DNA of 64,000 nt from Zootoca vivipara (Eukaryota): assembly GCF_963506605.1 (NCBI RefSeq), contig NC_083282.1, positions 67,146,001 through 67,210,000 of the forward strand, read 5' to 3'. The notes under the pieces were generated by a model. It was not told the origin of the DNA. It did no database searches and saw only the letters and a program-made list of their open reading frames with translations. Below, piece after piece: positions 10,227 to 59,100 of this stretch. The translations under genes were made by a program, and so were the position numbers. The number at the start of each line of letters is the position of its first letter. The stretch's first letter is position 1.

Positions 10227-10419
10227 CCAATGAAAGTGTGGGTTGCAATTGCCTTCATTTTTTGGTTGGGAGGGAATATTTCATTGGCCCTCACTGTGAG
10301 GCACATGGGTCTGTACAGGCACCATCATAATGTTACTACCAATGGCTTTGTCCTTGCTAACCAATCATGGAGCTCAGAAATGTTCTGCTATTTGCATACC
10401 TGGCAGTATATAAGCCAAT
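10227..10419 (+). promoter_or_regulatory. H2B-type promoter: CCAAT boxes, octamer ATTTGCAT, TATA box
   Basis: CCAAT at 10227, 10339, 10361 and 10415, plus reverse ATTGG at 10283; octamer ATTTGCAT at 10390-10397; TATATAA at 10407-10413; ATG ~70 nt further on at 10485. Confidence 0.75.
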
Positions 10420-10484
10420 AGGGTGGGTGGAGCCCCAGGCACTTACAGTAGAGGAGGCACCTAGAGTGGAAACAGATTGGAGTC

Positions 10485-10919
10485 ATGCCTTCTGCATACA
10501 GAGGGAAGAAAAGAATTCCGCTTCCGAAAAGAAAGCAGCTCAAGGGTAGGAAGCCTCGGCCTGTAAAGAAGACGTGCCATTTCAGACGTGGAGCGCAGGC
10601 AAAGCCAAAGCCGGTCAAGAAGGTTGGAAAGAGGAAGCCGAACTCTCCCGCCCTTAATGATTCCAAGACCCTGCAACAACTTCGAAGGGACAACATGTAC
10701 ATGACCACCAAGGCCAAAGGGATAATGATTTCTTTTGTAAAGAACCTCTACAAATGGGTCTCCATTGAAGCCGAGCGCTTGAGGAGGGAGAAGAATCGCC
10801 CCAGCATTGGCTTCATCGAAATGCGGACAGCCCTGAGGAGTGTTATGCCAGGGAAATGTAATAAATGCAGAGGAAGCACCCCGAAAGGTGGGGGCCCTCG
10901 CTTTCTGAAGGCCTCCTAA
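10485..10919 (+). CDS. Divergent histone H2B-like protein (candidate H2B variant), intronless, 144 aa
   Basis: KAKGIMISFVKNLYKWVSIEAERLRREKNRPSIGFIEMRTALRSVMPG aligns ungapped to canonical H2B [48 protein letters not shown] (20/48 identical by hand count). KTLQQL..D matches KVLKQV..D. MP start, G at -3, basic N-tail, H2B-type promoter upstream. Confidence 0.8.
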   Translation: MPSAYRGKKRIPLPKRKQLKGRKPRPVKKTCHFRRGAQAKPKPVKKVGKRKPNSPALNDSKTLQQLRRDNMYMTTKAKGIMISFVKNLYKWVSIEAERLRREKNRPSIGFIEMRTALRSVMPGKCNKCRGSTPKGGGPRFLKAS

Positions 10920-12143
10920 AGAAAAATCCCTCCCCTTCACCCTGGGGTGAGGAAGAACTAAAGGGAGAAGGGAGAGGAATATATCAGAGGCACCCCAACC
11001 CCCCAAACCCCCGTCTTATATTGCCAAGGGAATATAACCCTCATAATATGGCAGTTCTTCAACAATGGGATGGAGTTGGAAGGAGGAAAGTTGGATGAAC
11101 CAGTGGAGCTCAGGTTAAATATAAAACTGTACCATTGCACTGCAGCAAACTTCACAAGCCCTTGCCAAACATTCCACCACCAACCACCCTTTGGCCCGAG
11201 CAAGTGGGAGAACTTCCATAATGGGTAAAGACAGACAAGCATGTTATACGTAAGCGAGAGAGAGAGAGAGAGAGAGAATTGTCTATGAATCAAAGATCAT
11301 AACATGCAGAACGTACAAGAGCTAATGCATTCTTTTGTATTAGAGATGAGAGAGATTGCCCATCCTTTAAAACTGAAGAATTGTATTGTGAGTTGTTATT
11401 CTGAGGGCATTATAATAAAAAGTGGATTTTTGAATATTTTGGGTCTTGTGTTTTTCCAGTATTTTAGAGATAAGGGGAGGTTAGTGTTTAAAGAGGTAAC
11501 ATTATTAGGAAGAGTCTGAATCTGTAATTTTTGGGTGCCAATGGAACAGTCTGCTTTTGCAGAATATCTCGAGCTGCTCTATTGTGTAGTAATGTAATGC
11601 CTGTTGCTTTATGAATTGCTTATAGCATTTAGATCTAAAAAGAAAATGAAAAAAGCCTCTCTCCTGCATTTTGGACCTCCGTAAGTTAATCTTCTAATTG
11701 CTATGACCCTGTCAAGATGAGATCATCTGATTTCCTCAGTATGTTCAGGTAAGAATAATTCCACATTTCTGGTACCACTCTGTGCAATCCAGATCCATTA
11801 GACTTGCCATTGACTTTAACAAGATGTGGACTGCATGCAAAATGTGTCATCCAAAGCAAGGGTGACAGTCGTGGTTTGAAATATTTCAAGCTGCCCTATA
11901 ACTTTCATTTTGATAATTGGTTGACAATGCAATCCTATACATCTCTACTAAGAGGCACATTCCACTGAGTTTAATTAGACTTACCCACAGGTAAGTGGGA
12001 TGTGAAAAACAGTGTGGTTTGTCAGCACACATATTTTGAATGTGAAACCTCATTGATCTTGAAATTTAAATTTGCTTTCTCTGGGAGATCAAATTTTAAT
12101 AGCTTTAACAGCAACGGTACATACTGTATGTGAATAAAGTTTA

Positions 12144-28980: not shown

Positions 28981-31900
28981 CCCCTTCATGGATCAATGCC
29001 TTGTCGTGGCGAAGGGGCTTGAATAACTCAGAGAAGCTATGAGCTATGCCATGCAGGGCCACCCAAGATGGACAGGTCATAGTGGAGAGTTTTGACTAAA
29101 CGTGATCCACCTGGAGAAGGAACTGGCAAGCCACTCCAGTATCCCTGCCAAGAAAACTCCATGGACAAAGACAACAGGCATATAAAAGTTATGACGCTGG
29201 AAGATGAGCCCCTCAGGTCGGAAGGCGTCCAACATGCTACTGAGGAAGAGCGGAGGACAAGTACAAGTAGATTCAGAGCTGATGAAGCGGCTGGGCCAAA
29301 GCCGAAAGGACGCTCAGTTGCGGATATGCCTGGAAGCGAAAGGAAAGTCCGATGCTGTAAAGAAAAATATTGCATAGGAACCTGGAATGTAAGAACCATG
29401 AGTGGAGGTAAGCTGGATGTGGTCAAAAATGAGATGACAAGAATAAATATCGACATCCTGGGCATCAGTGAACTAAAATGGAAGGGAATGGGCGAATTCA
29501 GTTCGGGTGACTATCATATCTACTACTGTGGGCAAGAATCCTGTAGCAGAAATGGAGTGGCCCTCATAGTCAACAAAAGAGTGGAAAAAGCTGTAATGGG
29601 ATGCAATCTCAAAAATGACAGAATGATCTCGATACGAATCCAAGGCAGACCTTTTAACATCACAGTAATCCAAGTTTATGCACCAACTACCAGTGCTGAA
29701 GAAAGTGAAATTGACCAATTCTATGAAGACCTACAACAACTTCTAGAAATGACACCAAAGAAGGATGTTCTTCTCATTACAGGGGATTGGAATGCTAAAG
29801 TAGGGAATCAAGAGATAAAAGGAACAACTGGCAAGTTTGGCCTTGGAGTTCAAAATGAAGCAGGGCAAAGGCTAATAGAGTTCTGTCAAGAGAACAAGCT
29901 GGTCATCACAAACACTCTCTTCCAACAACACAAGAGACGACTCTACACATGGATATCACCAAATGGGCAGCATCGAAATCAGATTGATTATATTCTCTGC
30001 AGCCAAAGATGGAGAAGCTCTATACAGTCAGCAAAAACAAGACCTGGAGCTGACTGTAACTCAGATCATCAGCTTCTTATAGCAAAATTCCAGCTTAAAC
30101 TGAAGAAAGTAGGAAAAAGCACTGGGCCAGTAAGATACAATCTGAATCAAATCCCTTATGAATACACAGTGGAAGTGAGGAACAGGTTTAAGGATTTAGA
30201 TTTGGTGGACAGAGTGCCTGAAGAACTATGGATGGAGGCTCGTAACATTATACAGGAGGCAGCAACGAAAACCATCCCAAGGAAAAGGAAATGCAAGAAA
30301 GCAAAATGGCTATCCAACGAGGCCTTACAAATAGCGGAGGAGAGGAGGCAAGCAAAATGCAAGGGAGATAGGGAAAGATACAGGAAACTGAATGCAGATT
30401 TCCAAAAAACAGCAAGGAGAGACAAGAGGGTCTTCTTAAATGAGCAATGCAAAGAAATAGAGGAAAACAATAGAATGGGGAAAACCAGAGATCTGTTCAA
30501 GAAAATTGGAGATATGAAAGGAACATTTCGTACAAAGATTACCATAATCAAGGACAAAAGTGGTAAGGACCTAACAGAAGCAGAAGACATCAAGAAGAGG
30601 TGGCAAGAATACACAGAGGAATTATACCAGAAAGATATGGAGGTCTCATACACCCCAGGTAGTGTGGTTGCTGACCTTGAGCCAGACATCTTGGAGAGTG
30701 AAGTCAAATGGGCCTTAGAAAGCATTGCTAATAACAAGGCCAGTGGAAGTGATGATATTCCAGCTGAACTATTTAAAATTTTAAAAGATGATGCTGTTAA
30801 GGTGCTACACCCAATATGCCAGCAAGTTTGGAAAACTCAGCAATGGCCAGAGGATTGGAGAAGATCAGTCTACATCCCAATTCCAAAGAAGGGCAGTGCC
30901 AAAGAATGCTCCAACTACCGCACAATTGCGCTCATTTCACACGCTAGCAAGGTTATGCTTAAAATTCTACAAGGCAGGCTTAGGCAGTATGTGGACCGAG
31001 AACTCCCAGAAGTGCAAGCTGGATTTCGAAAGGGCAGAGGAACCAGAGACCAAATAGCAAACATACGCTGGATTATGGAGAAAGCTAGAGAGTTCCAGAA
31101 AAACGTCTACTTCTGCTTCATTGACTATGCAAAAGCCTTTGACTGTGTCGACCACAGCAAACTATGGCAAGTTCTTAAAGAAATGGGAGTGCCTGATCAC
31201 CTCATCTGTCTCCTGAGAAATCTCTATGTGGGACAAGAAGCTACAGTTAGAACTGGATATGGAACAACTGATTGGTTCAAAATTGGGAAAGGAGTACGAC
31301 AAGGTTGTATATTGTCTCCCTGCTTATTTAACTTATATGCAGAATTCATCATGCGAAAGGCTGGACTAGATGAATCCCAAGCCGGAATTAAGATTGCCGG
31401 AAGAAATATCAACAACCTCAGATATGCAGATGACACAACCTTGATGGCAGAAAGCGAGGAGGAATTAAAGAACCTTTTAATGAGGGTGAAAGAGGAGAGC
31501 GCAAAATATGGTCTGAAGCTCAACATCAAAAAAACCAAGATCATGGCCACTGGTCCCATCACCTCCTGGCAAATAGAAGGGGAAGAAATGGAGGCAGTGA
31601 GAGATTTTACTTTCTTGGGCTCCTTGATCACTGCAGATGGTGACAGCAGTCACGAAATTAAAAGACGCCTGCTTCTTGGGAGAAAAGCAATGACAAACCT
31701 AGACAGCATCTTAAAAAGCAGAGACATCACTTTGCCGACAAAGGTCCGTATAGTTAAAGCTATGGTTTTCCCAGTAGTGATGTATGGAAGTGAGAGCTGG
31801 ACCATAAAGAAGGCTGATCGTCGAAGAATTGATGCTTTTGAATTATGGTGCTGGAGGAGACTCTTGAGAGTCCCATGGACTGCTAGAAGATCAAACCTAT

Positions 31901-32199
31901 CTATTCTTAAGGAAATCAGCCCTGAGTGCTCCCTGGAAGGACAGATCGTGAAGCTGAGGCTCCAATACTTTGGCCACCTCATGAGAAGAGAAGAATCCTT
32001 GGAAAAGACCCTGATGTTGGGAAAGATTGAGGGCACTAGGAGAAGGGGACGACAGAGGACGAGATGGTTGGACAGTGTTCTCGAAGCTACGAACATGAGT
32101 TTGACCAAACTGCGGGAGGCAGTGCAAGACAGGAGTGCCTGGCGTGCTATGGTCCATGGGGTCACGAAGAGTCGGACACGACTAAACGACTAAACAACA
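28981..32199 (+). mobile_element. Full-length BovB (RTE clade) LINE
   Basis: ~3.2 kb; 12-bp TSD CTATTGGGGGGA (28969-28980, 32200-32211); BovB-type 5' end (GCCTTGTCGTGGCGAAGGGGC...GGGCCACCCAAGATGGACAGG) and 3' end (GGGTCACGAAGAGTCGGACACGACT..AAACAAC). Confidence 0.95.
29161..32193 (+). CDS. BovB ORF: APE-like endonuclease plus reverse transcriptase
   Basis: Uninterrupted frame from 29092 (TTG); first ATG at 29161. Endonuclease motifs GTWNVRTM, LGISE, GDWNAKVG, QIDYIL, SDH. RT motifs YRTIALISH, FIDYAKAFD, GVRQGCILSP, YADD. Confidence 0.93.
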   Translation: MDKDNRHIKVMTLEDEPLRSEGVQHATEEERRTSTSRFRADEAAGPKPKGRSVADMPGSERKVRCCKEKYCIGTWNVRTMSGGKLDVVKNEMTRINIDILGISELKWKGMGEFSSGDYHIYYCGQESCSRNGVALIVNKRVEKAVMGCNLKNDRMISIRIQGRPFNITVIQVYAPTTSAEESEIDQFYEDLQQLLEMTPKKDVLLITGDWNAKVGNQEIKGTTGKFGLGVQNEAGQRLIEFCQENKLVITNTLFQQHKRRLYTWISPNGQHRNQIDYILCSQRWRSSIQSAKTRPGADCNSDHQLLIAKFQLKLKKVGKSTGPVRYNLNQIPYEYTVEVRNRFKDLDLVDRVPEELWMEARNIIQEAATKTIPRKRKCKKAKWLSNEALQIAEERRQAKCKGDRERYRKLNADFQKTARRDKRVFLNEQCKEIEENNRMGKTRDLFKKIGDMKGTFRTKITIIKDKSGKDLTEAEDIKKRWQEYTEELYQKDMEVSYTPGSVVADLEPDILESEVKWALESIANNKASGSDDIPAELFKILKDDAVKVLHPICQQVWKTQQWPEDWRRSVYIPIPKKGSAKECSNYRTIALISHASKVMLKILQGRLRQYVDRELPEVQAGFRKGRGTRDQIANIRWIMEKAREFQKNVYFCFIDYAKAFDCVDHSKLWQVLKEMGVPDHLICLLRNLYVGQEATVRTGYGTTDWFKIGKGVRQGCILSPCLFNLYAEFIMRKAGLDESQAGIKIAGRNINNLRYADDTTLMAESEEELKNLLMRVKEESAKYGLKLNIKKTKIMATGPITSWQIEGEEMEAVRDFTFLGSLITADGDSSHEIKRRLLLGRKAMTNLDSILKSRDITLPTKVRIVKAMVFPVVMYGSESWTIKKADRRRIDAFELWCWRRLLRVPWTARRSNLSILKEISPECSLEGQIVKLRLQYFGHLMRREESLEKTLMLGKIEGTRRRGRQRTRWLDSVLEATNMSLTKLREAVQDRSAWRAMVHGVTKSRTRLND

Positions 32200-33974: not shown

Positions 33975-34724
33975 CAGTGGCGTAGGGAGCCGCTCGGTCA
34001 CCCGTGGCGGCAACCTGCTCTGTAGTGTGCATCCGCAGCGTCACTACGGAGCGCGCACATACAATGTCACTACGGAGCGATGCTGCGCATGCGCACTACA
34101 GAGCGGGTTGCTGCCGCCGCCGCTCCAGCGCCAGGATCCTCTGCTCGCAGCTGCGCTAGAGCGGTGCCGCCAGCAAACCGTGACCAAACCTTGGAGTGAG
34201 GTTTTTTTTAAAAGCCTTGCTCTGCAGCTTGCTCACTCACCTGCTAGGCACGCTCAAGCGGAGGCAAGGGGTGGGCCAGGGAGGGGTGTCAGCAGCGGCC
34301 CCTCCCTGGCCCACCCCTTGCCTCCACCTGAGCAGTAAGAAGCAAAAAGCACTACGGAGCAGGTTGCCGGCGGCGCTGGAGCGCCACCACCGGCAAACCG
34401 TGAGCAAGCCGCGGGGCGAGGTTTTTTAAAAAGCCTCACTCTGCAGCTTGCTCGTTCACCTGCTCAGCGCATGCTTTGCTTCTTCCTGATGGGGCGGAGG
34501 CAAGGGGTGGGCCAGGGAGGGGCGTCAGCCTGCCCCTCGCCTCCACCCGAGCAGGAAGAAGCAAAGCACTCCTGCCGAGCAAGTGAACGAGCAGCCAGCC
34601 GCCGAGCGAGGCTTTTACCAGGCGGCGACTGGCTGCTCACTTGCAGGGGGGGTGCCGAGTGTCACCCCCCTCCAAGGTGGCACCCGGGGCGGACTGCCCC
34701 TTCACACCCCTTGCTACGCCCCTG
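33975..34724. mobile_element. CpG-rich non-autonomous hAT element with an internal duplication
   Basis: TIRs CAGTGGCGTAG...CTACGCCCCTG; perfect 8-bp TSD TCCCCACC (33967-33974, 34725-34732); internal imperfect direct repeat (~34165-34350 vs ~34385-34570). Confidence 0.85.
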
Positions 34725-54245: not shown

Positions 54246-54349
54246 GGGGTGGGGGCAGGTCCCAGCCCAGTCCTTCTCAGGTATGGCAAAGTGCTGGTAA
54301 CTTTGGGAGCGGATCTCGGCTCTAAGTTGAGAGTTTAGCCCAAGCCCTT

Positions 54350-56100
54350 CACTTGTGTGCGAGCGAAAACACGCCCAAGGGGCATACCTGGAGACTTGGG
54401 GAGTCGGTAGGGGAGTTCCTCCAGGTTCGCCCCCCCCCTCCTGCCGCAGGGTTTTGCGGAGAGCAAGCAGGTCCGCAAAGTGAAAAGTCTGCCCGTACGA
54501 GCCCCTCTGCTGCGACCCCCTTGCAGAGTTCACCGCCTCTTCTTTCTGTGGGACCCATTCCCCCGTGGCCAGGGTGACTATAGAGCCCCATGCGGTACCT
54601 TCCCGCGAATGAACCTGAGGGTTGGGAAGGGGTGTGTGGAAGCGAGAAGAGAAGAACAAGCCCGGAGGGGCTGCGGCGAAGAACCTGCCCCAAGCCCCTT
54701 CCGCGAGAGAGTGCGGCCAGGAAAGCGGCGGCGGCGGCGCTCCCTGCTCGCTCCGCACATGCCAGGCCCTCCCCGTCCCTCGGTGGGTCGGCATTCGGGG
54801 CAGGCCCGCTCTCAGGCGCGGGGTGTTCTGGCGACACCCTCCCGCCCTGTGGCGGTCCCAGCGCCCGCCTGAGAGAGGTTGCTGTGGGAGCCCAGCCCAG
54901 GCGCTCTCCCCTCCCCCCATCCTCCTCCTCCTCCTCCTCCGCTCTCTCTCTCTCCCCCCCCTCGCCTCGGTGCCTGGAACAATAGAGTGCGAGTGGAGCC
55001 GGCTCTGGGCTGCGCTCCCTCCCCTTCTCCCTCTCCCCGCCTCTCCTCCCCTCCCTCCCGCCCGCCCTGAGCCAGAGGCAGAGCAGCCGCCGCCGGAGGA
55101 GCCGGTTCCATGCCCGCTGGAGCCTCCTCTCGCCTCGTTCTCCCCCTCAGCTCGCAGCCCCGGCATGGACGTTAGGTTTTACCCTTCCGCCCCCACCGCC
55201 GTTGGTTCCTTGTCTGGGGCCGACCCCACTTGCTTGGGCCCCCTGGACTATTACCATTGCAACAAGGTAACAAGGGGGAGGGATGAGAGAGGGGCGGGCG
55301 GGCGGACGCGGGAGGGGGGGAGGCGAGGAGGGACGGGCGCAAGTGACCGTGCAAGGGTGGAGGATGCAAGCGACCGTGCGCCCAAGTCTCAGCCCCCTAC
55401 CCCACCCCACCTCCCCTTATTCCCCACGTCGCGCCTCCTCCTCTTCCCCCCCTCTGGGATGCTGCCCCCTTTGCCCCACACTAACAGCGATGGCGCGCAC
55501 GGCGCTGCGCGGGACTTGTCAGCGCTCCCCGCACGGGGCAGCGCCAGGAGTTGATTCAATGGCACCCCTGAGCAAAGCTCTCGCTCTCGCTCTCTCACCT
55601 CCCCCCCCCACCGCCCCACGCACTTTGGTCCAGTTGCGAAGGCTCCGCAAAAACTGGGGAGGGAAAGGTTTCTGCCTCTCTCGCAAATCGCCCCAAAGTC
55701 CCATGTTCAGATCGCCGGCTTGCTTGCTACGGTAGCAGCAAAGGGAAAAGAAGCAAGCGCTTTAAAAACCGGGAAGGGAGAAAAAAACGATCGAGGCTGA
55801 AACTTCTCCTCCTCCTCCTCTGGGGAGCAAGAGTGTGGAAGGTAGCAAGAGAGCGGCTGCATCCTGCAGGAGGGAATTTCAAAACTATTTGGTTTCCCAG
55901 CACCCAGGCTGCTTGCTTGAAAGCTGCGACGCAGTTCTCTTTCCCATCTTCGAAGCAAAAGCAGAACAGGAGGGGGGGGTGTTGTTTAGGGTGGATGGGG
56001 GATATGCTGGGAAGGGTGGGGGGGAGAGGAGTGGGAGAGAGGCAGTTGGTTATCAGTTGCGTCGTCACTTCAGACCCCGGATTAGACCTCTCAGTTTTGG
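54350..56100. promoter_or_regulatory. CpG island / promoter and 5' region of the TOX-family gene
   Basis: Abrupt rise in GC and CpG density around the first coding exon, with GC-box-like and polypyrimidine tracts; not bounded by TSDs. Confidence 0.85.
55165..55266 (+). CDS. TOX2: TOX high mobility group box family member 2, coding exon 1 (34 codons; gene continues beyond window)
   Basis: MDVRFYPSAPTAVGSLSGADPTCLGPLDYYHCNK followed by a phase-0 donor AAG|GTAACA; Kozak GGCATGG. MDVRxYP is the TOX/TOX2/TOX3 N-terminus; PSAP-AVG-GA(D/E)P-LDYYH best matches TOX2 as I recall it. Confidence 0.82.
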
Positions 56101-56182: not shown

Positions 56183-59100
56183 GTTTGGGGGAGGAGTGGA
56201 ATTGTATGGGCTCAAGAGGCTGCTTGGTTGGAAATGTATTTCTTGCATGCCTGGCTATGGTTTCTGTTGGACAATGTACAGGCTAGGGGAGAAATGCTTT
56301 AGGGTGAGTATATTATAACCCCCCTCCAATTCTTTAATGTCTGTCTCAGAGGAATCTATATATGATAAAGACTGTTCACACCTGGATTTAGCCATATATG
56401 CAGTGGTTAGAACTTAACAGCCTTTATGTTTTTGTTTTAGCATTTCTCTAACTCAGGCTGCAGGTTCTTGTCCCTTAGTTGTCAACCCCTCCCCTCTCCT
56501 CCCCCTCCCCACAATACAGTTACTTCTGTTAAATGCAACTGAGAGACATGGATTATGTATAATTCATAAGATCTACAGCACAACATGAAAATCTTTCTAA
56601 CCTAGATTTGTCTATTTACTACTGCAAGAACGTGCACTGTGTGTGTGTGTGGTGTGTGTGTGTAAGAGAGAGAGAAATTTGTTAGAAGATATTTAAGAGT
56701 GCGTAGTGTTTTGGCCAATGGCTTTAACTGAGAGGAATAAGAGAGTAAAGCACAGATATTGTCGGTATTTATCTGTGAGTACTATCCATTTCAGGCTTGA
56801 GGACAGCAAAACTTCAACATTTCAATGAAAGAATTTGAAACTTTGGATTATTTAATCATGCACAAATATGTATTTGTTTCATATTATCAGATGCTTGCAA
56901 TTTTGTAAAGTAATGGAAGTTGCAGAGCAAAAGGTTTTGTTTTTGTGGTATATTGAGTTTTCTAATACAAATTTGTTTTAAATTCTGAAGCTTTCCCTTC
57001 CTACACTGATATGTGCCTTTAAACATTCATCACAGTTTCAGGCTATTTGCAATTGTGATATATTTGCATATGGTTTTATATAAACATTTAAAAATCTATA
57101 GTACGTCTATCCACAGCTGTCTGGGCTGTCAAATCTAATTTGAAAATTTCTTTCTGAAATGCAAGTATTTTCCAATTCATATCATTTTATTCATGTAACA
57201 ACAATGGCTTCCAAAACACAAAGTGTCACTTATTCTTGCAGGAAGAAATTTTACATTTTCATTATTATCAAAGAACCAACTGCTAACATACAAGACCTAT
57301 ATAATACCAGTCTTTAAAGAAAAATAAACGCGTTTTGGAATGTTGTCTTTTTTTATATATAAATATTGAAAAATGTTAGAAGTAAATCCATGGTGGTTTT
57401 TCTTCATCTGGAAAGTTGAAATATAAAGCATTACAACTTGTAATTAGCCATTAAAAGGGGTGAATGCAAGAGATCTGTAGCAACTTTAGAGTAAAATGGA
57501 AAGTTACAGCATGACTACTTTGCCATAAACTTTGATCATAGGTAGGCCAAGGGGAAAACACAATTATTGCACATGTTGGGCAGGTGTTTTGGCTGCAGTT
57601 AGTTGAAAGTCACTTGCTGTTAATGCATCTTTTTACAAAAGTGCTGTTTCTAACAATGCCGGGGAAAAGCAACACAGAGAGAGTCACAGAGTGCTGTAAT
57701 AGTTCTTTGTCAATTTCTCTGATAAAGCAAATAACTTCAAGTTTGATTGATAAAGAGTCCAGAAGAGGTGATGAAAAGGAGCACATACAAAATACTGACC
57801 ACTGCCACCAGGTGCTGCTGTTGTCACTGTTACCAGGATCTTAAAAAGAGAGAGAGGAAAGAAGAAAAAATGTTAAATATGTAACTAGCAACCAATATAA
57901 ATATCCCACTGCTGTCAATTGCTATTTACATAGTCAGAATGGGCCAAATGGACTTGTACAGTAAATCATCTTTGTGTAAAGAAAGTAGGATTGCAGTTGC
58001 AGTATCCCAGAGGCCCATGTTCAGCCTGTTCCCTTAAAAGATGTTACCATGGGCTCTAAAATTTCTCTTCCCCCAAAGTACTCATATAGAACGATATACA
58101 GTATGTGGATTTTTCTCTCACAGTGATAAACATTGTCATTTTGCTCAATGCTGTAGACAAGGTTTACAGGTGGTTCTTTCCTCAAAGGTTGCACAATTTG
58201 AGAGCCTCAAAGAATACACATTGCAAGGGGATCGTTTCCTTAGGCAGGACAATCAGGGAATTCAGCAGCTCCTCCAGGTGAATATTATGAAAGAAGCAAA
58301 AGTTTCAATGGGGTTTGAATGGAAGAAAGGGAAATAGACTGAGATGTGTTCGGGATTGCTAACTCTGCCCTTCCTTAGTTGAGATTTTAGAATGAAGGAG
58401 GGCCAGCCTCTGCTTTCTGTAATTTAAGGGGAATGTTAGCTTGGAGGAGACTGATATGAGGCCTAGTTATTGCTTCTTTTCTTCCCCCCCCCCCAAAAAA
58501 AACACACAAAACAAACCAGGGAATTTGAGAGTGTGTGGTACTGATTTTCTGAGGTTTCCTCAGGAGCTCAAACACGAAAAGGGTGGGATTTTGCCAAACA
58601 AGCTTTCAAGCTCTATGATTGAAATGTTTTTCCTTCCAGAGGAGTGGGTGGGCACAGAAACTCTGCAGGAGGAAGGGTTGTGTAGTGTGCATTGTGCACT
58701 AGATGTAGGAATAGAAGTGAAGGACATAGTATTGCAATAGCTCTGTGTTTTCATACCCCTGAGCCAATAGGTGTTTCTGATATGGCCATTGAGCTTTCTG
58801 TAGAAACACTGTTTAGCTCAAACCATCCTGAAGTGCTAATGTTTTGTGCATTTATTGAACACAATATTGTCATCATGAGATTTCCTATTACATTTGTGCA
58901 CTGCAGCAACAGTTTCTCTTTGCAGTCACTGAAATACCTGTTATACACCAGCATTTCCATTTTAATAGGACAGGGATGTTTGTAGTAGGGCTTGTCTAAT
59001 GTCGATGTGAATACCCAGTTAAACGCCATTTGCTGTGCTCTGGGGTATCGTCCAGTTGCTTGTTTGGAATAATCTGTTGAGAGCTGGCATTGTGTGGTGG

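Follow-up and report, generated by a model that had tools for sequence, protein, structure and literature searches.

Does the promoter in front of a divergent H2B gene of the lizard Zootoca vivipara record the origin of that gene, and is it still in use? The question is raised by a 64,000-nt stretch of contig NC_083282.1 (assembly GCF_963506605.1, positions 67,146,001 to 67,210,000; hereafter the window), where an earlier note described an intact CCAAT-octamer-TATA promoter of the H2B type ahead of a divergent H2B open reading frame (ORF). All positions below are window coordinates and, unless stated otherwise, refer to the forward strand.

Promoter layout and its specificity

Vertebrate H2B promoters are described as consisting of CCAAT box, Oct-1/OCA-S octamer and TATA box (PMC5706932). 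Each of these motifs was found where the note had placed it. Distal CCAAT box lies at 10339-10343 and proximal one at 10361-10365. The octamer ATTTGCAT (the H2B element, 10390-10397) starts 29 nt after the latter and is separated by a 9-nt gap from the TATA box TATATAAG (10407-10414, TATATAA from 10407), an 8-mer that is identical in two paralogues, C12 and C7a. The likely 5' UTR (10436-10484), its start placed about 30 nt past TATA, contains no upstream ATG and leads to the ATG at 10485. Further CCAAT copies occur at 10227 and 10415, along with ATTGG at 10283. No fixed counterpart of these three was found in paralogues, the copy at 10361 being the conserved one. The region from -200 to -1 is devoid of CpG.

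Two additional motifs are present. CTTTGT (10346-10351), located 15 nt ahead of the proximal CCAAT, conforms to C[AT]TTGT, which we take to be a SOX/HMG-type candidate site. CATCATAAT (10323-10331) is the reverse of YTATGA, a motif derived from family comparison of variant promoters and presumably a CRE/ATF-like half-site.

How specific is this arrangement? The octamer alone occurs eight times in the window, four times per strand. Taken alone, the octamer-TATA pair is not diagnostic, because a second pair exists at 57062; the CCAAT-octamer-TATA triple with its spacing is. A strict pattern of the triple has 11 matches in the 1.44 Gb genome, six of them at H2B ORFs (four canonical genes, this gene and one paralogue) and five with no histone ORF behind. 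A relaxed pattern is found once in the window, at this site, in 9/11 canonical H2B promoters and in 5/10 variant promoters; there was no match in 30 Mb of simulated DNA or in 248 kb of background loci. The spaced triple is not a chance arrangement. H2B ancestry that can be read independently of the protein is borne out by this layout, shared with nine of 11 canonical genes and absent from background, and we regard it as virtually certain. DNA search with the promoter as query recovered only the promoter itself.

The second octamer-TATA pair (57062-57085) is embedded in AT-rich intron-like DNA following a TOX-like exon. It has no CCAAT at the right distance and was taken as background.

A diverged and very basic H2B

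The intronless ORF (10485-10919) encodes a divergent H2B of 144 amino acids with net charge +36. Among PDB entries it matches H2B chains, with a best single-domain E of about 2.5e-9, and no family was matched in a Pfam search of the protein. A structure model predicts helices at residues 58-67, 75-103 and 110-120; a C-terminal helix is not predicted with confidence. When this model was submitted to Foldseek, the top rows were nucleosome histone chains (best E 1.2e-3, none under 1e-3). The model has the three helices of a histone fold, and the nearest relative of the protein is H2B. Identity to canonical H2B amounts to 21/66 residues in the fold and 3/22 in the C-terminal part; in pairwise alignment the canonical acidic residues E105 and E113 as well as K120 are all replaced.

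The closest protein was found in Podarcis lilfordi (98% identity), followed by Varanus (73%) and a partial king cobra protein (74% over 58%). Orthologues with open ORF exist in lacertid, monitor and anole. The ORF is single, with no intron within the fold, and two contigs from congeneric runs (X2 and X3, see below) cross it without a joint. The predicted gene is a diverged, very basic, intronless H2B variant conserved across squamates.

A family of variants in reptiles and birds

Searches of the same genome revealed 10 intact divergent H2B ORFs at five loci: two on C7, one each on C12 and C15, and six in tandem on C2. Among the loci fetched there are also 11 intact canonical H2B genes, a comparison set that leaves out the broken L016 and the truncated L018. 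Judged by sequence, this gene is one of ten intact paralogues, not a lone relocated canonical H2B.

Several of these loci deserve separate description. The C2 cluster (G000:C2:18054800-18073900; L020, L022 and L023) comprises six family genes of two subfamilies. Arginine makes up 27% of the C12 paralogue (L002:1471-1845, reverse strand), which combines a protamine-like N-terminal half with an H2B fold and has gecko orthologues. Its processed copy L025 (G000:C1, about 111255700-111256260) is 81% identical over 572 nt and 5'-truncated. L016 is a canonical-type H2B whose start is broken and which has neither promoter nor stem-loop; behind L012 the 3' end of an H2B is duplicated.

Profile searches retrieved relatives from geckos, skinks, anoles, agamids, snakes, an amphisbaenian, turtles, kiwi, duck and kakapo (names were checked for 27 proteins). 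Among 50 matches listed in one profile search, none bore a mammalian or amphibian name. In a phylogenetic tree of 52 sequences, the 43 that belong to the family, turtle and bird proteins among them, are united in a single clade (UFBoot 100), with canonical H2B and two proteins that we take to be H2B.W-like outside it, and this gene groups with its monitor and anole orthologues in a clade with support of 100; the tree has long branches, is based on 75 columns and covers a set without H2B.L, H2B.N and H2B.K sequences. The family carries only automatic names, "H2B-like" or "uncharacterized". Literature searches brought up no account of such an H2B variant family in reptiles or birds, though older biochemical work on their sperm proteins may have been missed. 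The promoter element is known, and the family marked by it appears to be undescribed.

Promoters of paralogues and orthologues

The CCAAT-octamer-TATA layout is kept in six variants and lost in four. Where it is kept, the distance from CCAAT to octamer is 29 nt in five genes and 28 nt in one, and the gap to TATA is 9 nt; in ten of 11 canonical genes the corresponding distances are 30-31 nt and 8 nt (9 nt in two). Since the 29/9 spacing is specific to the family, this promoter came via the family ancestor.

The octamer itself is perfect in 2/10 variants versus 6/11 canonical genes. Other variants carry ATTTGAAT (twice), ATTAGCAT and ATTTAAAT, and four are degenerate or deleted, so that five of ten are within one mismatch. 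Canonical genes of this genome also use ATTAGCAT and ATTTACAT. In the C2 cluster, two genes lost CCAAT and most of the octamer by deletion, and two genes have a degenerate core with TTATGACG and reverse CCAAT.

Variant promoters are further distinguished by low CpG content (0-4 CpG in -200 to -1, 3-13 in canonical genes) and by the two additional motifs. C[AT]TTGT on either strand is present in all ten variants, 1/11 canonical promoters and 91/387 background pieces, YTATGA in all ten variants, 0/11 canonical promoters and 62/387 pieces, and both together in 15/387 pieces; the motifs were picked after viewing these promoters, and the genes are related, six of the ten belonging to one tandem cluster. 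At four separate loci C[AT]TTGT stands exactly 15 nt ahead of CCAAT.

Promoters of orthologues were read as amino acids from over-extended predicted proteins, that is from open frames only. In P0008, a cluster-mate of a 69%-identical orthologue, 34 of 47 promoter positions are identical (score 178, shuffles at most 40), which is as good as the ORF match; the best promoter match of P0010 is also this gene. Proximal CCAAT and SOX-type site fit both orthologues. Distal CCAAT fits P0008 and is deleted or shifted in P0010. The octamer is altered in both: threonine replaces alanine in the octamer codon of P0008, which forces a change at octamer position 5, and glutamine replaces histidine in P0010, which forces one at position 8. 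YTATGA fits one orthologue and is changed in P0008, TATA is changed in P0010, hence these two elements also turn over. Gecko protein P0021 and P0028 fit CCAAT, ATTTGAAT and TATA of two paralogues, in one case the C7a promoter with a gecko protein. P0037 and P0044 were set aside, their promoter matches scoring no or little better than shuffled sequences. When the P0008 extension served as query in a protein search, no additional match was obtained.

The earlier note had asked for conservation of these motifs in other species. As judged through amino acids, the upstream region is conserved and the exact octamer is not. With the octamer perfect in two of ten paralogues and changed in 2/2 readable orthologues, its preservation as a functional feature is not supported; the original claim is weakest where it calls the octamer intact.

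Loss of histone gene features and a putative two-stem element

The histone stem-loop is absent from all ten variants (by pattern or inspection) and present in 11/11 canonical genes. Rfam search of the 3' region gave no match at gathering level, histone family included. The gene has instead a poly(A) signal, AATAAA at 11414, with likely cleavage near 11436 and a T/GT-rich stretch downstream (11414-11455 in all), as indicated by sequence and contig ends. The H2A partner has been lost as well: no H2A or H4 match at E<0.5 was obtained in the window or in 100 kb upstream, and no H2A remnant was found upstream of the gene. A weak H2A-like match in the C2 cluster (E about 0.09) has its frame broken by stops and was dropped.

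In most variants a pyrimidine tract occurs within 6-9 nt of the stop codon. It is followed by a short G/C-rich arm, by a purine tract and by a sequence complementary to the arm. Here the predicted pseudoknot-like element spans 10928-10997, starting 8 nt after the stop, with putative stem S1 formed by 10928-10938 and 10967-10977 and putative stem S2 by 10943-10949 and 10991-10997. When scores of crossing stems were compared with shuffled sequences, six paralogues ranked 1/100, three including this gene 9-10/100 and one 56/100; among the 11 canonical controls, one ranked 1/100 and one 2/100. Cognate pairing of S2 ranked 3/720 among permutations, that of a control segment 16/720 and that of S1 75/720. 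Plain folding of the element gave z between -0.75 and -1.95, and an unsupervised helix scan of the MAFFT 3' alignment returned pairs of S1 type only, S2 not being recovered. In congeners, four substituted positions and one insertion were observed within 10920-11000, all outside the 36 stem positions.

The element could be a pseudoknot or a two-state switch, a plausible though unproven reading. Stop-adjacent readthrough pseudoknots are known from gammaretroviruses; the likeness consists in two crossing stems starting about 6-9 nt past the stop codon. Unlike there, no conserved frame after the stop was demonstrated here, the next stop following after 13 codons; the loops are long in this copy and an Rfam match is absent. 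It may represent a new post-transcriptional signal that has taken over from the histone stem-loop.

A 5-nt insertion at 10959, in the loop of the element, creates an AATAAA and is seen in four of five congener runs shown there, plus X1. Contigs X2 and X3 reach the distal poly(A) signal in spite of it. Another motif that the variants share in their 3' UTRs, resembling CCAAG-AATCCTG, occurs about 100-140 nt past the stop, in the window at about 11025-11037. L025 has a mismatch in the second 3' stem that is absent from its C12 parent.

Evidence of expression

Eight of the 20 runs listed were compared with the window; no run listed as containing this sequence is recorded as RNA. Small assemblies of congeneric runs, which we presumed to be RNA, cover the gene and not its flanks. 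A single unspliced contig of X2 extends from 10449 (35 nt past TATA) to 11436 (17 nt past AATAAA), with flanks empty except for a repeat. The X3 contig spans 10489-11400, and contigs of X1, X6 and X7 cover parts of the gene, ending at 11405 in X1 and 11406 in X6. Their 3' ends come from three studies; contig ends are a hint only, because contigs cannot fix transcript starts or ends. Changes in the ORF relative to three congener runs are mostly synonymous (8/9, 6/8 and 3/3, several changes being shared between runs). Three raw RNA runs bearing the species label of the best DNA matches yielded 0 matching reads of about 7.5 million each, a sample of 6% of each run taken with no positive control.

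The suggestion of ongoing expression is supported by the congener contigs and by the prevalence of synonymous changes, and the gene is very probably expressed. Expression in the germ line seems rather probable: mammalian H2B variants are reported as germ-line restricted (PMC8857922). L025 ends at the poly(A) signal of C12, and a processed copy of this kind needs germ-line transcription of the C12 paralogue.

Origin of the promoter and alternative explanations

The earlier note inferred that a genomic H2B had been relocated at DNA level and not retrocopied. Origin at DNA level is very likely, the promoter and the T/GT-rich stretch behind the poly(A) signal being present and an A-tract absent. 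Transfer of a canonical H2B to this spot is not upheld; the 29/9-nt spacing, the extra motifs and the 3' element, all common to the family, point to duplication within an old variant family as the source. One might assume a retrogene whose source was a long transcript starting upstream of the parental promoter, so that the promoter was carried along. The gene is intronless and isolated, the family occupies five dispersed loci and, as L025 demonstrates, does retropose. However, several loci remain similar up to at least 160 nt above the ATG, a point past TATA, and the one clear retrocopy, L025, has neither promoter nor most of the ORF. The missing A-tract is a weak argument because old A-tracts decay. 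Taken together, such a retrogene is improbable. Still harder to believe, and largely refuted already, is the assumption that the motifs match by chance or form a dead relic ahead of a pseudogene. Strict matches without histone ORF (five of 11) and the recurrence of the octamer-TATA pair at 57062 would agree with it, but the ORF is open in lacertid, monitor and anole, its changes are mostly synonymous, the upstream region is conserved and congener contigs are bounded by TATA and AATAAA.

More serious is the idea that the octamer works as an Oct-1/OCA-S element and that S phase, perhaps the one before meiosis, continues to switch the gene on, as reported for the mammalian germ-line variant TH2B. 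S-phase elements of TH2B include the octamer. Work by Huh et al. (1991) and by Hwang and Chae (1989) reportedly concerns S-phase elements of TH2B. TH2B (H2B.1) is described as keeping S-phase promoter elements within a promoter common to TH2A and TH2B (PMC5384234), and the Oct-1/OCA-S model (PMC5706932) would apply to a perfect octamer at canonical position. Moreover, half of the variants are within one mismatch, canonical genes use other octamers too, and the position has been kept for the age of the family. On the other hand, the exact octamer is changed in both readable orthologues and is perfect less often in variants than in canonical genes, stem-loop and nearby H2A or H4 are absent, and the promoter is free of CpG. 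We therefore consider an S-phase-switched gene unlikely and the octamer probably not an S-phase switch.

Our preferred explanation, to which we assign a probability of roughly 65%, is that the core promoter was inherited from H2B, that the family spread by duplication at DNA level and that added sites likely drive the gene in germ cells, the octamer being tolerated and not required. An ancestral canonical H2B would have left its cluster before the split of lizards and birds. CpGs and stem-loop would then have been lost, while a poly(A) site, two promoter motifs and the stop-adjacent two-stem RNA element were acquired; duplication together with the flanks would have come next. CCAAT and TATA would still serve NF-Y and TBP, and the octamer would keep its position with changes of sequence tolerated. 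SOX-type and CRE-like sites, rather than an octamer switch in S phase, would likely provide germ-cell drive, and the protein, a very basic H2B without acidic-patch helix, would load on germ-cell chromatin.

Relation to known H2B genes

Compared with replication-coupled H2B promoters, the order of elements and the octamer are the same and the distance from CCAAT to TATA is similar (46 nt here, 46-47 nt in canonical genes). The differences are 29/9 instead of 30-31/8 spacing, lack of CpG and the added SOX-type and YTATGA motifs. Divergent H2A partner and stem-loop are absent, a poly(A) signal is present instead, and the protein is not near-invariant.

TH2B is comparable in that this germ-line H2B variant reportedly retains S-phase promoter elements. 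It is however 89% like canonical H2B (PMC4584325), is paired with TH2A and has a stem-loop (PMC8857922), in contrast to the 21/66 identical fold residues and the missing partner and stem-loop found here. Mammalian H2B.N, H2B.L and H2B.W and vertebrate H2B.K share with this family a divergent fold and turnover by duplication and retroposition (PMC8857922). H2B.N is also without recognisable C-terminal acidic-patch helix and H2B.L is intronless, like this gene; H2B.K and H2B.N have an intron and this gene has none. In the tree the family groups apart from the two proteins presumed to be H2B.W-like. Raman et al. (2022, PMC8857922) describe N, L and W as mammalian, report only H2B.K from chicken and make no mention of lizard; PMC3380720 also belongs to the H2B literature drawn on.

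The catalogue of H2B variants is almost wholly mammalian; here ten intact genes occur in one lizard, with further members among reptiles and birds. Their promoters provide a readable record, element by element, of a cell-cycle histone gene turning replication-independent, and bird members would make the family testable in a tractable animal. More speculatively, reptiles and birds may have their own ancient expanded family of spermatid H2Bs, some nearing protamine-like composition (up to 27% arginine). It could have been born when a replication-coupled promoter turned into a SOX/CRE-driven spermiogenic one and the stem-loop gave way to a stop-adjacent pseudoknot controlling translation or readthrough; we consider this possible, if doubtful.

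Genomic surroundings

In 100 kb upstream of the window no genes were recognised by eye. Synteny with MYBL2, suggested by human gene order, was rejected, the nearest Cmyb_C match being 3 Mb away. On the other side, the first coding exon of a TOX-family gene is located at 55166-55267 within a CpG island (about 54300-56000), the H2B variant lying 45 kb upstream of it. From its N-terminus we take it to be TOX2-like. Atlas search with this exon gave no match; an HMG box follows 185 kb beyond it on the same strand. Between the H2B variant and the TOX-like gene there are a GC-rich patch (34300-34900, 59% GC) and an apparently intact LINE with a 1036-codon open frame (29083-32193), presumably of RTE/BovB-like type; a 3' fragment is found on the reverse strand at 39893-40264.
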